NCBI GenBank assembly: GCA_963664295.1
Contig: OY760935.1
Coordinates: forward strand, 160,001-224,000
DNA length: 64,000 nt
Source of the DNA: Candidatus Altimarinota bacterium
GTDB lineage: Bacteria; Patescibacteriota; Gracilibacteria; CAIRYL01; GCA-016699755
Reading direction: 5' to 3'
Each line of letters opens with the position of its first letter. The stretch's first letter is position 1. This document shows positions 6,984 to 46,922 of the stretch, piece by piece. The notes under the pieces are model-generated. The model was not told the DNA's origin, ran no database searches, and saw only the letters and a program-made list of their open reading frames with translations. A program made the position numbers and the translations under genes.

Positions 6984-7235
6984 TTATTTTACCTCTTTAA
7001 TATCAAGTGTTGCTCCTGCATCAGCAAGGCTTTTTAAAAAAAGCTGAACTTTTTCTTGAATTAGTGTTGCTCCTGGGATTTTTTCCACAAAAATAGCATC
7101 TTCTGCAACAGTAATGCTATCTATTCCTAATACTCCTTTTGTCACCTCTTCTTCTATTGAGCCAAAAGGTTGATCATTGCCATTATTGATAGTAAGGTCA
7201 TATAGCCGAGTTGTTTCAATTTTGGGATATTTCAT
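6984..7235 (-). CDS. Small hypothetical protein, paralog of 7248..7520
   Basis: 83-aa ORF; shares PKI-x5-YxLxI and LG..V..PG..L..KxQxFL pattern with its neighbour. Confidence 0.7.
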   Translation of the reverse strand: MKYPKIETTRLYDLTINNGNDQPFGSIEEEVTKGVLGIDSITVAEDAIFVEKIPGATLIQEKVQLFLKSLADAGATLDIKEVK

Positions 7236-7247
7236 TTTAACCTTGAA

Positions 7248-7520
7248 TTATTTAGTTTCTATTTCGCCAATAACAAGATTAAATTTTTCTTGATCAATAT
7301 TGCTAAGAAAATCTTGCATTTTACTTTTCATCAAAGCTTCTCCTGGTACGCCACCAACAAGAAGAGTTCTGTTAAGTGCTTGTAAATTTTCTAATCCTAA
7401 GTTTGCCATCATAAAACTTCTTGCGTTAGTAATAATTTTTTCTGCTTCTGCAGTTTCAGGGTCTTTAGGTGAAATAATAAGATTATATTTTTTTTCAGCA
7501 TCGATTTTAGGGATTGTCAT
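7248..7520 (-). CDS. Small hypothetical protein, paralog of 6984..7235
   Basis: 90-aa ORF; TTGACA on the minus strand at 7566-7571 upstream. Confidence 0.7.
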   Translation of the reverse strand: MTIPKIDAEKKYNLIISPKDPETAEAEKIITNARSFMMANLGLENLQALNRTLLVGGVPGEALMKSKMQDFLSNIDQEKFNLVIGEIETK

Positions 7521-7609
7521 ATGTTTTAAAATAAGGGCAAATAATATTCACTATTATTGTAAATTTGTCAAGAGTAAAAAAATATAAACACAAAAATCAG
7601 ACCTTTTAC

Positions 7610-7664: not shown

Positions 7665-8567
7665 GTGCTTCAATACAAAATTCCACAAAATGTGCAAATT
7701 GAAGACCGCATAACTTCATTTTTAACAGTAAGACAACTGATTATTTGCGCTATTGGCGGTGGGATTATATATATGATTTATATTTGGCTTTCAAAGTATT
7801 ACTACGCAGAAGTTTGGCTACCGCCAGTTTTTATTCTTAGCGCAATCACTCTTGCTGTTGCATTTGTAAAAATAAATGGACTAACTTTTACAAAATGGAC
7901 ATTGCTTTTTTTGGAACACATGATCAACCCAAAAAAAAGAGTTTGGGATAACACAAAAACAAATGAATTGTTTTTTAGTTTTGTGACCAGCAAAAGAACA
8001 ACAAAAAAGAAAGAAGCAAAAAAAGAGCAAGAGTTAGAAGAAAAAGACTTCACAGCCTTGGAAGAAATCACAGCAAGATTAGACAGCAATCCATTTGAAA
8101 ACATAAAAAAAACAGAAAAAAAACAAGAAGTAGCAAAAAAAGAAAATTTTTCAGACCATAGTATCTTACTTGATGACAAAGAACGAGAAAGACATGAGCA
8201 AAGGCTAGAAGAAGCAATATTAGCAAATATAAAACCGAAAAATCCTCAAAAAATAAAAAAATCACTACAGGAAAAAATCACAAAAACACCACAAAAAGAA
8301 GCAAAAATCGAAATAGAACACGAAATAAAACCTTTAAAAAGCACAGCCTCTGTACAAAAAAGAGAATTTGCAATACCAGAAATAGCAACAACAAACCCAC
8401 AAACAACAATAAAACCACAGACAGCAAGTCGTTTTCGTCCAGTTCGTGAGAAAAAAATAAACACAGTAGAAAAACCGCAAGTACCAGAAGACCACAAAGA
8501 AATGCTTAGTAAAAAAGGCGAAAAAGAAATTAAAGTAAATTTTGTTCCCAAAAAAGATGAACGATAA
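7665..8567 (+). CDS. PrgI-family membrane protein (VirB3-like) with long charged C-terminal tail
   Basis: QYKIPQNVQIEDRI..LTVRQL, two TM helices, P(K)KRVW motif. Confidence 0.8.
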   Translation: MLQYKIPQNVQIEDRITSFLTVRQLIICAIGGGIIYMIYIWLSKYYYAEVWLPPVFILSAITLAVAFVKINGLTFTKWTLLFLEHMINPKKRVWDNTKTNELFFSFVTSKRTTKKKEAKKEQELEEKDFTALEEITARLDSNPFENIKKTEKKQEVAKKENFSDHSILLDDKERERHEQRLEEAILANIKPKNPQKIKKSLQEKITKTPQKEAKIEIEHEIKPLKSTASVQKREFAIPEIATTNPQTTIKPQTASRFRPVREKKINTVEKPQVPEDHKEMLSKKGEKEIKVNFVPKKDER

Positions 8568-9264
8568 AACAGTAAGACAACGCAAAACCAGTCCACAGGC
8601 AACAACACAGGTTTTTATGCCAGTTTCAGAAGTAAAAGACAGCACATTGGTATTAAAAAATGGTGGAATTAGAGCAGTTTTGCAGACATCAAGCGTAAAT
8701 TTCAATCTCAAATCAGAACAAGAGCAAAATTCAATTATTTATGGTTTTCAGAACTTTTTAAATAGTGTTGATTTTCCTGTGCAAATTGTTGTGCGCAGTA
8801 AAAAACTAGATATTGATAATTATCTTGAAAATCTCACAGACATAGCAGAAAAACAGGAAAATCCATTACTTAGAAAGCAGTCTTTTGAATACATAGAATA
8901 CATTAAAAAATTAGTAGAATATGCAGATATTATGGAAAAGAAATTTTTTGTAATTGTGCCCTATGATCCCCTAAGAGCAAAAACTCAAGGAATGTGGAAG
9001 ACTTTTTGGCAGGGAATTCACCCAGCTGATTCTTTGGAAGCAATTCGCCAAAGACACAGAGAGTTTTCTTCACTTAAAAAAGGCTTAGACACAAGAGTAA
9101 ATTTAGTAAAAGCAGGACTAGAAGGTTGTAATTTAAGAGTAGAAAGATTAAACACAAAACAATTGGTAGAATTGTTTTTTCAGATTTACAATCCAGACAC
9201 AGCGCGTAATCAAAAAATAAAAGGCAAAGATGGCTTTGAAGCATTAGATATTCTCCCAACCTAA
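8557..9264 (+). CDS. TraC/VirB4 N-terminal-like protein that accompanies PrgI in CPR genomes
   Basis: LKNGG.RAVL...SVNF.LKS.EQ, FLNS.DFP.QI...S, F.V.VPY, L.T..L.ELF...YNP; no Walker A motif. Confidence 0.7.
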   Translation: MNDKTVRQRKTSPQATTQVFMPVSEVKDSTLVLKNGGIRAVLQTSSVNFNLKSEQEQNSIIYGFQNFLNSVDFPVQIVVRSKKLDIDNYLENLTDIAEKQENPLLRKQSFEYIEYIKKLVEYADIMEKKFFVIVPYDPLRAKTQGMWKTFWQGIHPADSLEAIRQRHREFSSLKKGLDTRVNLVKAGLEGCNLRVERLNTKQLVELFFQIYNPDTARNQKIKGKDGFEALDILPT

Positions 9265-9281
9265 GTCAAGACGTGATTTGA

Positions 9282-9310
9282 AAGATAACATAAAAAATAT
9301 AATTTGTCAA
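9282..9310 (-). promoter_or_regulatory. Consensus sigma70 promoter pointing antisense into the TraC-like gene
   Basis: Minus strand TTGACA-17-TATCTT with TGn. Confidence 0.5.
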
Positions 9311-9319
9311 GAGATAGTT
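9302..9319. repeat. 18-bp direct repeat, left copy (ATTTGTCAAGAGATAGTT)
   Basis: Identical to 10174..10191. Confidence 0.85.
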
Positions 9320-9331
9320 GAAAAAAATCAC

Positions 9332-9377
9332 AAAAAGAAAAAACGGCCACAGCCCGGGGCGGGCGTGCGACCGTTTT
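9332..9377 (-). terminator. GC-rich intrinsic terminator of the cassette gene
   Basis: Minus strand AAAACGGTCGCA-CGCCCGCCCCGGGC-TGTGGCCGTTTTTTCTTTTT. Confidence 0.75.
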
Positions 9378-9399
9378 GATGAATCATCCTCCTTTCTTT

Positions 9400-9828
9400 T
9401 TAGTTGTTTTCCAGTAGCGCTGGGATGTCGATCGACAGGTCGGTGATATTTCTGCGAATGTATTCCGCCAATATTCCGCGCGGAATGCGAAGCGTCATGG
9501 TGGATTGTCTTTGGGCGTGGTCATAATCGACCTTGATGTACGGCTCGAGTTCGAACCAGTTTCCCACGCTCCCGTAGGCAATTTTTGTCACATTGTTGCC
9601 ATTGACCTGCAAAACGCTGGCCAAGCTCGAGAGCAGATTTGCCGCCATGTAGGCCTCGGCGACCTGTTTTGAGACATATTTGCCCCCACTTTCACTGTCT
9701 TCGTTGGGGGCACGTCCTATGGATGTGACGACGACTATGTCGCCTTCCATTTTTGTTATAACTTCGGCAGCCCCGCAGACTGCCGGGAGAATGAGACAAA
9801 TAAGCAGAGCACTAGCCAATTTTTTCAT
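9400..9828 (-). CDS. GC-rich secreted protein, weak LPP20/FlgP-like resemblance
   Basis: AAGGAGG SD before ATG 9828; signal peptide MKKLASALLICLILPAVCGA; VVVTSIGRAP...A..NL pattern. Confidence 0.7.
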   Translation of the reverse strand: MKKLASALLICLILPAVCGAAEVITKMEGDIVVVTSIGRAPNEDSESGGKYVSKQVAEAYMAANLLSSLASVLQVNGNNVTKIAYGSVGNWFELEPYIKVDYDHAQRQSTMTLRIPRGILAEYIRRNITDLSIDIPALLENN

Positions 9829-9890
9829 GATTTCCTCCTTGGAAAAGTGTGTAGTGGGGCATAATTGCCCAAGCTCTAAAAAATAAACCT

Positions 9891-9951
9891 TAACTTCGAC
9901 TCTTTTAAGCACAAAATATATATAAATTTATGACCAAAAGAGTCGAAGTTA
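9891..9951. repeat. Perfect 16-bp inverted repeat with 29-nt spacer
   Basis: TAACTTCGACTCTTTT (9891-9906) / AAAAGAGTCGAAGTTA (9936-9951). Confidence 0.9.
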
Positions 9952-10106
9952 GTATTAAACAACAATAATAATGAAGAGAGGATCTGCTCTCATGCTTAAA
10001 TAATTTAAGCACCGATTCATTTGCAATCATGCATTTATAAGCAAAAAGATATACATAAAGCATAAATTGTACTAAGAGCAGGTCACTCTTCACTATCTAC
10101 CTATGC

Positions 10107-10118
10107 TGTCAAAGATCA
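10107..10118 (-). promoter_or_regulatory. boxA-like antitermination site
   Basis: Minus strand TGATCTTTGACA versus the E. coli rrn boxA TGCTCTTTAACA, about 35 nt after a -10 box. Confidence 0.45.
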
Positions 10119-10153
10119 GCTTAATAAATAAATTATTATTCTTAAGTTGCAAT

Positions 10154-10182
10154 AATTTACAACAAAAATAGACATTTGTCAA
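10154..10182 (-). promoter_or_regulatory. sigma70 promoter of the cassette
   Basis: Minus strand TTGACA-17-TAAATT. Confidence 0.6.
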
Positions 10183-10191
10183 GAGATAGTT
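10174..10191. repeat. 18-bp direct repeat, right copy
   Basis: Identical to 9302..9319. Confidence 0.85.
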
Positions 10192-10213
10192 TTTCTAAAG
10201 ATAAATTATAATT

Positions 10214-11296
10214 TTACACTTGATCAAATTCACTTTCTCCAAAGGCAATTAGTCTCTTTAGAGCCATGTCAGAGCTACTTATTCCCATTGCCTTTCTGGT
10301 TGCTGGTGAAAAATCATCAACATGTGCTCCTCTAACAAATTGATTACCTCTTTTAACAGGGTCAGCAGAGGTAATTACATTTTCATTTGCAATTCCATAA
10401 GTATTTTTTAAGTGTTCTGTTAAAAATATACTTGCTTTGATTTGTTCTAATTTTGGCTCCTCAACTCCATATTGGCCTTTTTTGTCTTCTCTAAGTGCTA
10501 TTTCAACTGCAATAGTATGACGATTGATATCCCCATAGCCAAGTTTGTAAGGAATATTGCCTAAAGCCCCGTAGCCTTGTTGTGCATCAAAAAACTGCAC
10601 AATTGCACCATTGTGAGCAATCATAAAAGCTGCATCCATACTTTTTGCTAGGGTTTTTAATCCTGATTTGGTCACCTCTTGGTCACTCATTTTGTTGTGA
10701 GCGCCAGTGCCATGATAGGCAATAAAGTTTTTTCTTCTAAATACCTTTGATGATTGCATACTAAATGGCTTTGTATCAGTTATGTAATAAATAATTCTTC
10801 TACCATTTTCATCATAAACTTCATTATTATTAATTTTTTTAATTGCTTCTGCTTGTGTACATTTTATGAGTAATAATTGTTCATTCAAAATTTCTACATT
10901 AGGGGTTATGTCTTTTCTAAAAGTTTTTCGTTTTAGTGATGTTAAGTGAGGAATACTGCTATCCACTTTTGCTTTTAAGTTTCTTTCTTTTTGCACACTT
11001 TGTTGAGCTACTTGTGCTTTTGCTTTTTCTTTTGCCTTGTTTCTTATTTTAATTAAGTCATTGAGGGTTAAATTTTTTAATTCATCTCCTTCTGCCAATG
11101 TTGTTTGCCATGTTTTCATGTAATATTCTGCTCCATCCCAGCTTTTGCCCAGTTTATAAAAATAATTGATCATTTTTTGAGCATTTTCTGCGTTTTGATT
11201 TTCTCGAAACTCATTACCTAGTTGATTAGCACCACTATTTTCTAGTTTACTCTTTGCTTTTTGCAAGAAACCGCCAATTTGCTCACCTAAAGTCAT
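10214..11296 (-). CDS. Orphan N-terminal region fused to an Amidase_2/PGRP-like peptidoglycan amidase domain (degenerate)
   Basis: IAYHGT, AAFMI..NG.I.Q, N..TIAVEI, EQI.A...L...L...YGI...NVI pattern. Confidence 0.65.
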   Translation of the reverse strand: MTLGEQIGGFLQKAKSKLENSGANQLGNEFRENQNAENAQKMINYFYKLGKSWDGAEYYMKTWQTTLAEGDELKNLTLNDLIKIRNKAKEKAKAQVAQQSVQKERNLKAKVDSSIPHLTSLKRKTFRKDITPNVEILNEQLLLIKCTQAEAIKKINNNEVYDENGRRIIYYITDTKPFSMQSSKVFRRKNFIAYHGTGAHNKMSDQEVTKSGLKTLAKSMDAAFMIAHNGAIVQFFDAQQGYGALGNIPYKLGYGDINRHTIAVEIALREDKKGQYGVEEPKLEQIKASIFLTEHLKNTYGIANENVITSADPVKRGNQFVRGAHVDDFSPATRKAMGISSSDMALKRLIAFGESEFDQV

Positions 11297-45832: not shown

Positions 45833-46512
45833 TTTAATTTTTTTAAGGCATTAAAAGCCGCATCAATACTTGCTTTTTGTTTACTTGAACCTTTGCCTTT
45901 GGCAATGCATTTTTCATCTAAATAAGCACCAACGATGAATTTTTTGTTATGGTCAGGTCCACTTTCTTTAAGAACCTCAAAATGAGGGGTTATGCTCTTT
46001 TTTTCTTGAGCAAGCTCTTGAAAAAGAGACTTAGAGTCTTTGTGTAGATTTTGGGCAATAATTTCATCTATTTCCGGATAAAGAAATTCTTTGAGAATTT
46101 TTTCAACCTCTCTTAAGCCGCTATCAAGATAAATAGCACCAATTACAGCCTCAAAAGTATTAGCAAGAATATATTCTTTTTTTCTGCCTCCTGATTTTTC
46201 TTCTCCTTTGGACATGAATAAATATTTACCCAGATCTATTTTTTTAGATAAGCGAGCAAGATTTTCTCCGCAGACTAAAGCGCTTCTATAGGCAGTTAAG
46301 ATACCTTCTTCTTCTTTTGGGAATTTTTTAAATAAAAAACGAGTGGAAAGTAGTTCCAACACAGCATCGCCCAAAAATTCCAACCTTTCATTACTATCTC
46401 GTTTTAATCCTTTATGCTCGTTTAAATAACTTTTATGAGTAAAAGCTTCTTCAAAAATTTCTTTATTTTTTATTGTAATGCCGAGTTTTTCACAAAGGCT
46501 TTTTAATTCCAT
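45823..46512 (-). CDS. rnc: Ribonuclease III
   Basis: FTHKSY, NERLEFLGDAVL, FEAVIGAIYLD, dsRBD GPDH. Confidence 0.97.
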   Translation of the reverse strand: MELKSLCEKLGITIKNKEIFEEAFTHKSYLNEHKGLKRDSNERLEFLGDAVLELLSTRFLFKKFPKEEEGILTAYRSALVCGENLARLSKKIDLGKYLFMSKGEEKSGGRKKEYILANTFEAVIGAIYLDSGLREVEKILKEFLYPEIDEIIAQNLHKDSKSLFQELAQEKKSITPHFEVLKESGPDHNKKFIVGAYLDEKCIAKGKGSSKQKASIDAAFNALKKLKWN

Positions 46513-46922
46513 TATTTTTTAATATCTTTTGCAAGACTAGAAAGCACTCCATTAACAAATTTGCCTGCTGTTTCGTCTCCAAATTCTTTAGCTATTTCAA
46601 TAGCTTCGTTCAAGATGACTGCAAGGGGAGTGTCAGTTTTCATAATTTCATAAGCACCAATTTCTAAAACACACCTTTCTACTGAGCAAAGTTTTTCAAT
46701 AGGCCATTTTGGAGCATATTCCTGAAGTTTTTCATCAATTTCTTCTCTAATACTAATAACTCCTTCAAAAAGCTCGCGAGCAAAAGAATGGTCTTTTAGT
46801 TCAGGAGCAAATTTTTGGATAATGTAGTCAAAAATTTTTTCAGGTTCTTTGTTCTTGCTCACTGTCACAGCAGTAAGCGCCTGAAAGGCTGTTATTCTGG
46901 CAATGTGTCTTAGTTTAGCCAA
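46512..46922 (-). CDS. nusB: Transcription antitermination factor NusB
   Basis: R..AR..AFQAL, W..E.L, NEAIEIAK.FG, FVNGVL. Confidence 0.94.
   Translation of the reverse strand: MAKLRHIARITAFQALTAVTVSKNKEPEKIFDYIIQKFAPELKDHSFARELFEGVISIREEIDEKLQEYAPKWPIEKLCSVERCVLEIGAYEIMKTDTPLAVILNEAIEIAKEFGDETAGKFVNGVLSSLAKDIKK

Follow-up and report, generated by a model that had tools for sequence, protein, structure and literature searches.

Genes behind promoter, boxA and hairpin-leader modules in a Gracilibacteria genome: candidate messages for the ribosomes of another cell

Results

In the window, by which we mean the whole stretch of 64,000 nucleotides analysed here from the genome of a Candidatus Altimarinota bacterium, the transcription unit at 9302–10191 belongs to a set that follows one rule, a promoter, a boxA, a hairpin leader and a Shine-Dalgarno (SD) sequence in front of a gene; the rule picks out a small and fast-evolving set of envelope genes in about one quarter of the class genomes searched. 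The promoter, boxA, hairpin leader, SD, codon use, trailer complementarity, terminator and spread across the class are all directly observed. Since signals of the rRNA transcription type are combined with start signals and a codon choice unlike the cell's own, we tentatively read the unit as a processed, end-paired message that would be made like rRNA and translated by the ribosomes of a host cell.

Anatomy of the unit at 9302–10191

The unit lies on the minus strand between two copies of an 18-mer (Table 1). An earlier note on this DNA, drawn from the letters alone, had described the exact 18-mer at 9302 and 10174, a minus-strand promoter, a boxA-like site, a hairpin-rich leader of about 320 nt, an AAGGAGG that is rare among host genes here, a secreted 142-aa protein and a GC-rich terminator, and each of these elements was found, the secretion being predicted from the hydrophobic N-terminus. 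The leader is 319 nt long with two large hairpins, and its structure score (z −6.64) was reached by 0 of 100 shuffles; hairpin 1 is a predicted RNase III substrate. The terminator hairpin scored z −3.61 (1 of 200 shuffles). The description as a GC-rich cassette applies to the ORF and the terminator, the only GC-rich parts, but not to the leader, which at 29.7% GC lies under the 33.5% of the genome. The second AAGGAGG, after the stop, is present and directly abuts an ATG; it represents the complement of the leader arm, not a usable SD. An Rfam scan of 9200–10300 gave no match at the gathering level and only sub-threshold hairpins of miRNA type; the unit encloses an ORF conserved as a protein, and no structural RNA was detected in it.

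Table 1 Features of the unit, its surroundings and associated loci (window positions unless a contig is given)
Feature	Position	Strand	Remarks
Third copy of the 12-nt promoter core	7563..7574	+	same orientation
PrgI-family gene	7665..8567	+	family match
Left flank, short VirB4 N-terminal-like gene	8542..9264	+	conserved across the class
Left 18-mer	9302..9319	+	contains a second −35 (9310-9305), extended −10 at 9287-9282
Terminator hairpin, GC-rich, with T-rich tail	9321..9377	−	arms 9340-9351 and 9366-9377
Trailer at the stop codon	9386..9408	−	complementary to leader arm B; includes the second AAGGAGG
142-aa ORF	9400..9828	−	predicted signal peptide; GC 50.6%, GC3 0.60
Shine-Dalgarno AAGGAGG	9834..9840	−	canonical; ATG 5 nt downstream
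Leader hairpin 2	9891..9951	−	25-nt arms
Leader hairpin 1	9961..10104	−	arm A (5') ~10090-10082, arm B (3') ~9983-9973
boxA-like site TGATCTTTGACA	10107..10118	−	sequence pattern
−10 hexamer TAAATT	10154..10159	−	17 nt from the unit −35
Right 18-mer	10174..10191	+	contains the unit promoter −35 (TTGACA, minus strand 10182-10177)
Right flank, Amidase_2 gene	10214..11296	−	family match
nusB (46527-46904) and RNase III (46075-46467)	46075..46904	−	adjacent genes, same strand; factors the proposed mechanism needs
Seventh unit (L160)	G000:C1 363853-364233	−	strong SD, membrane protein, GC 0.34, GC3 0.31

Six GC-rich genes share a promoter and boxA

A composition scan of the genome returned six isolated ORFs with a GC content of 46–52%, a GC3 of 0.50–0.61 and hydrophobic N-termini; the 826 core ORFs, a set from which the six genes and all ORFs above 44% GC had been left out, have a mean GC3 of 0.22 and a maximum of 0.39. 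A strict promoter and boxA pattern, written after viewing these leaders and blind to composition, matched the genome six times and the control sequence never, with one match upstream of each GC-rich gene. A relaxed pattern gave 10 matches against 2 in the control: five of the six GC-rich genes (the unit at 9302–10191 not among them), one more gene with an SD (the seventh), tmRNA, RNase P RNA, a structured unit with no ORF and a site within an ORF. The 16S leader also carries a boxA, together with a leader-trailer helix. What the present analysis adds is that, in a genome known in full, boxA matches the GC-rich genes one to one and also marks stable RNAs; it further adds controlled counts across the class, the switch between leader arms and, for the repeat, the comparison with a related strain described below. 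A search of titles and the opening lines of abstracts outside subscription journals found no description of a boxA/SD unit class.

Three of the units are paralogues that share 28–30% identity and have homologous leaders, trailers and terminators, with one outside relative; GC3 stays high in all three. The boxA, leader and trailer of the seventh unit resemble those of the 264-kb unit. When selection for RNA structure was considered as a cause of the GC-richness, structure scores fell below z −2.3 in 5 of 7 units and in 5 of 20 core genes. No rho gene was found in the genome; boxA therefore has no Rho to counter in this organism, and a role as an anti-Rho device was rejected.

The start signals set the units apart as well. 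SD motifs precede 24 of 873 ORFs in the genome, five of which are genes of GC-rich units, and G makes up only 5–8% of ORF upstream regions at −12 to −5. The 3' end of the cell's own 16S rRNA, GGACCACCCCTT, is an altered anti-SD without CCTCC, as in another genome of the family (G004), and all seven unit SDs pair better with the canonical anti-SD than with the cell's own, by 1.7–4.8 kcal/mol. Anti-SD loss in part of the Parcubacteria and bS21 loss in the clade of the present organism are reported (PMC9297842), and a Peribacter is described as SD-scarce and without CCUCC (PMC10783764).

Several observations lie beside this set. The ORF-less unit (L168; G000:C1 ~778580-779150, minus strand) consists of promoter and boxA followed by ~560 nt of structured sequence and a terminator; it has no Rfam match at the gathering score and is possibly an undescribed stable RNA. 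The 16S and 23S rRNA genes are unlinked (G000:C1 ~568600-570200 and 1134800-1137600). Large clusters of REP-like repeats occur on G000:C1 near 233-269 kb, 579-622 kb, 658-662 kb and 759-762 kb, and three GC-rich units adjoin such clusters, in a genome with no match to a Y1 transposase.

The stop-codon region is complementary to a leader arm

In the units tested, the sequence around the stop codon can pair with the 3' arm of leader hairpin 1 (arm B). The score was reached by 4, 1, 2, 6 and 13 of 150 shuffles in five units, the first figure being that of the unit at 9302–10191, and was not significant in the 87.6-kb unit (94 of 150). Folding of whole transcripts mostly leaves arm B with its leader partner, arm A (p 0.92–1.0), and upon removal of arm A it pairs with the stop region in all five units folded (0.85–1.0), the sixth and seventh units having been left out. 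Shuffled trailers reached 0.7 in 12 of 67 cases overall and in 6 of 20 for the unit at 9302–10191, and because the alignment of leader and trailer had served to choose the arms, this test is in part circular and not independent. An earlier duplex test that allowed long loops was noisy, with 2 of 6 units below 5%. Among units of relatives, the own trailer ranked first in 6 of 30, with about 1 expected; the leader-trailer score exceeded that of a mid-gene window in 14 of 30, which is no signal.

These parts suggest a mechanism with four steps. First, NusB/E would bind to boxA in the way they do on rRNA and would bar access to the cell's own ribosomes, an effect reported for E. coli suhB and lambda N. 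Second, RNase III would cleave leader hairpin 1. Third, the freed arm B would pair with the trailer and close the message in the manner of a pre-rRNA leader-trailer helix. At last, the RNA would be passed to a host, which would make the protein and export it into its own envelope.

Two known systems come close. In rRNA operons, boxA brings in Nus factors, and leader-trailer helices are cleaved by RNase III (PMC10250234); a strong promoter, a close boxA, leader hairpins and flanking complementary strands are common to both, and 16S, tmRNA and RNase P RNA likewise have a boxA in the present genome. Unlike in rRNA operons, however, the units enclose an ORF with an SD, their trailer has to oust a leader arm that competes with it, and Rho is absent. 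With suhB and lambda nutL-N, for which repression of translation by Nus loading across long structured leaders is described (PMC5725501), the units share a boxA far upstream of the SD and structured RNA between the two, whereas they differ in being dispersed orphan envelope genes with foreign codon use, a leader-complementary trailer and an SD that misfits the cell's own anti-SD.

Units occur across the class

The strict pattern is present in 93 of 401 class genomes and its backwards control in 8. Other genomes hold 109 sites, of which we read 108: 16S rRNA follows in 8, tRNA or tmRNA in 5, 1 has no downstream sequence, and 76 of the remaining 94 have a downstream ORF. An SD precedes 39 of these 76 ORFs versus 15 of 162 neighbouring ORFs, and a hydrophobic N-terminus is found in 25 of the 39 versus 44 of the 162, in counts whose neighbour controls include shadow ORFs and in which kin are not independent. 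GC3 exceeds that of the neighbours in only 24 of 36 units of relatives. The 16S end was readable in 31 of 49 genomes searched; 19 keep CCTCC and 12 do not, and most relatives could therefore read the unit SDs themselves. CUUCC-type anti-SDs still pair with canonical SDs through G-U wobble, so those found in relatives do not discriminate. One unit of genome G217 has an SD that matches its own altered anti-SD better (−14.4 versus −9.2), and several units in G036 and G040 show no anti-SD preference or no GC shift. In G217 we also noted three boxA/SD units with near-identical promoters (L138, L140 and L142; G217:C9 211491-213900), whose small proteins look, by eye, like a degenerate receiver domain.

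Whose ribosomes would read the units

Translation by a host would account jointly for the SD, the codons, boxA and the end-pairing, and we lean tentatively towards it, although we know of no precedent for designed export of mRNA between bacteria. The idea of expression in another cell, raised as speculation in the earlier note, has gained the most support of its claims, all of it from DNA sequence. A bolder version, in which the messages would be "mRNA effectors" (rRNA-like, hidden from the cell's own ribosomes, sealed by a helix and sent through a relaxase-less T4SS-like machine, so that host ribosomes and host secretion build envelope proteins specified by the parasite), appears unlikely. 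Three VirB4/VirD4-like ATPases are encoded elsewhere in this 100%-complete genome, which has no match to the relaxase families PF03432, PF08751, PF03389, PF02486, PF01076 and PF07514, although a relaxase of a new type could be present; these ATPases are a possible route for RNA.

The strongest alternative, although a doubtful one, is that the units are messages gated by Nus factors and RNase III and read by the cell's own ribosomes, where boxA would repress translation until the hairpin is cut, the strong SD would aid initiation behind a structured leader, and the products would be fast-evolving surface proteins of the cell itself. The anatomy is the same as that of the lambda N leader, in which RNase III is reportedly involved; nusB and RNase III genes are present, the canonical anti-SD kept by most relatives and the G217 unit that fits an altered anti-SD agree with such gating, and signal peptides would be just as expected of proteins that the cell displays on its own surface. 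Repression of translation through boxA over 100–200 nt is described (PMC5725501). Own-ribosome gating, however, leaves unexplained both the persistence of a GC3 of 0.50–0.61 across diverged paralogues in a genome with a GC3 of 0.22 and the better fit of 7 of 7 SDs to the canonical anti-SD.

The units bear on a largely unsettled question, namely by what means CPR/Patescibacteria influence their hosts. If host ribosomes read the units, they would be a new route of control from bacterium to bacterium, with hosts predictable from codon use; if the messages were mRNA effectors, unit SD and codon use would point to the host of each uncultured lineage; and if the cell's own ribosomes read them, the units would still be a regulon under Nus and RNase III that has not been described before, and SD-less genomes would have a second mode of translation.

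The 142-aa protein

The protein encoded at 9400–9828 has no Pfam match at E 0.1, PF02169 included, and no NCBIfam family. One close homologue (77–81% identical) and, among 1.84 billion representative proteins, three distant ones (24–26%) were found, all without names; there is no close relative beyond its own lineage among 5.8 billion proteins, and DNA scans of metagenome, viral and genome collections and of seven family genomes returned no family member and no junction. The best matches, whose taxonomy the earlier note had proposed as a check, include no close homologue in a donor lineage. The predicted structure has a mean pLDDT of 69. Its best three structural matches (Z 6.6, 6.1 and 5.7) are to HP1454, Lpp20 and Tip-alpha, a group represented by PDB entries 5ok8, 4kzs and 3gio, the Atlas LPP20 cluster matches at 0.84, and Foldseek against the PDB gave no match at E 0.001. 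We tentatively assign the model an LPP20/Lpp20-like fold, as a lead rather than a family assignment and one from which no function follows: it resembles the Lpp20/HP1454/Tip-alpha fold (Pfam PF02169) in its top three structural matches and its predicted secretion, but Z stays below 8 on a model of pLDDT 69, neither Pfam nor NCBIfam matches, and no lipobox is claimed.

The 18-bp repeat and a related strain

In the genome of 1,215,430 bases (33.5% GC), the 18-mer occurs exactly twice, even with one mismatch allowed, and each copy holds a minus-strand TTGACA with a −10 at 17 nt. Commonness genome-wide, which the earlier note had named as grounds against a cassette, thus does not apply; yet its 12-nt core, CTCTTGACAAAT, is promoter consensus and has nine copies in the genome, including those that the note had placed at about 7564 and 34765, so only 6 of the 18 bases are private to the pair. 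A match at all six extra bases has a chance of ~0.003 per pair and was seen in 1 of 36 pairs of core sites. The identity ends at 18 bp, with no extension to ~100 bp at the unit ends. The left promoter (9282-9310, minus strand) runs antisense into the VirB4-like and PrgI genes. The repeat is therefore the −35 region of two like promoters, a strong-promoter sequence, and taken alone it is of modest interest. Slightly more probably than not, it is a seam left when promoter homology drove an insertion or duplication; a coincidence of promoter consensus is possible, and an enzyme site is improbable. Behind the third core, at 6984-7520 on the minus strand, lie two small orphan ORFs of 83 and 90 aa, which look alike and have no Pfam match.

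A related strain, represented by the contigs of one run (X4) from another study, carries the GC-rich gene at the same site. Its left flank gene differs at 5 of 692 nt (99% identical), its ORF at 46 of 356 nt (87% identical), its amidase gene at 35 of ~630 nt and its hairpin 2 at 2 of 89 bases (9857-9945), and the stretch of signal peptide and SD is replaced. At third positions of the ORF, 14 changes are to GC and 6 to AT. The −10 of the left promoter is nearer consensus in this strain. A reading of the left 18-mer as the stump of a lost unit, in which TATCTTTCAAA resembles boxA, was rejected because at 9284 the strain has a change that brings the −10 closer to consensus and makes the sequence less like boxA. 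The four bases after the core are TAAA in both copies of the strain versus ATAG in both copies here. This apparent parallel change is suggestive only, because the two copies are on different contigs with 175 nt uncovered (X4, 9946-10120) and TAAA also follows 2 of 7 other cores here. Recombination at the −35 is nevertheless plausible, given that both copies changed alike and that one relative (G050) shows a 14-nt layout of the same kind, in which the repeat, 86 nt beyond the stop, serves as promoter for the second of two tandem units. As to vertical inheritance in synteny, which the earlier note had held would count against its cassette, the gene is at the same site in the strain; 40 relatives from other genera match mostly the VirB4-like flank, and the neighbours of this flank differ in the 9 loci read.

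An import of the genes fits part of this evidence. In the manner of morons or PeSL cassettes, orphan genes from an unsampled, GC-richer pool of phages or elements would have been recombined behind native modules at like promoters, with SD and GC as relics of the donors. T4-type phage PeSL cassettes and lambdoid morons (PMC2839356) likewise consist of an ORFan with its own sigma70 promoter, SD and terminator, and a promoter sequence repeated at both ends could serve enzyme-free recombination; PeSL homology is ~100 bp with mini-circles, however, in contrast to the 18 bp here with no circle seen, and boxA and the 320-nt leader are additions here. The identity at both ends with copies changed alike, the shared 14-nt −35 region in G050, the 3 of 33 units followed by another unit, and the gene that differs more between strains than its left flank all fit import. 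Against it, the protein has no close relative outside its lineage, each gene lies between a leader and a trailer that fit one another, high GC3 does not decay, and a long flanking repeat is present in only 1 of 30 comparable units of relatives and 0 of the other five GC-rich units. We consider import unlikely as a whole; it may be right on how the units move and wrong on why they look foreign. Recent capture from another cell, an acquisition that the earlier note had raised as speculation, is disfavoured because the proteins are orphans and paralogues only 28–30% identical all keep high GC3.

The note's mobile cassette with a dedicated recombination site is not supported. No joint of an empty site or circle between the repeats was present in the contigs of five runs (X1–X5), in which rare variants are dropped (X5 covers scattered AT-rich bits only and was left out of the comparison); in the sample from which the DNA probably comes, contigs run across the whole region and show no joint, and a metagenome scan for the junction was empty. 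As the note had remarked, no recombinase is nearby: the unit has none, the genome has one distant tyrosine recombinase gene (PF00589), and resolvase PF00239, IS110 PF01548 and Y1 transposase PF01797 have no match in it. Its suggestion to look for other high-GC, SD-led genes flanked by the motif did turn up five more genes, but none of them is flanked. A site-specific or T-DNA-like cassette, with the 18-mers as att or border sites and the T4SS-like genes close by as the means of excising or transferring the DNA, is thus very improbable: an exact direct repeat unique in the genome, the concerted change of both copies, the PrgI and VirB4-like neighbours with three ATPases elsewhere, and an inverted repeat that would span an empty site speak for it, and 12 of 18 nt being promoter consensus, the missing joints and enzymes (the six relaxase families included), sister units without borders and the changing neighbours of the flanking genes speak against it.

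The inverted repeat just mentioned is 16 nt long (88%), lies at 9293-9308 and 10200-10215 flanking the two 18-mers, and would form one hairpin across an empty site; no differences are listed for it in the related strain, and the intervening bases differ.
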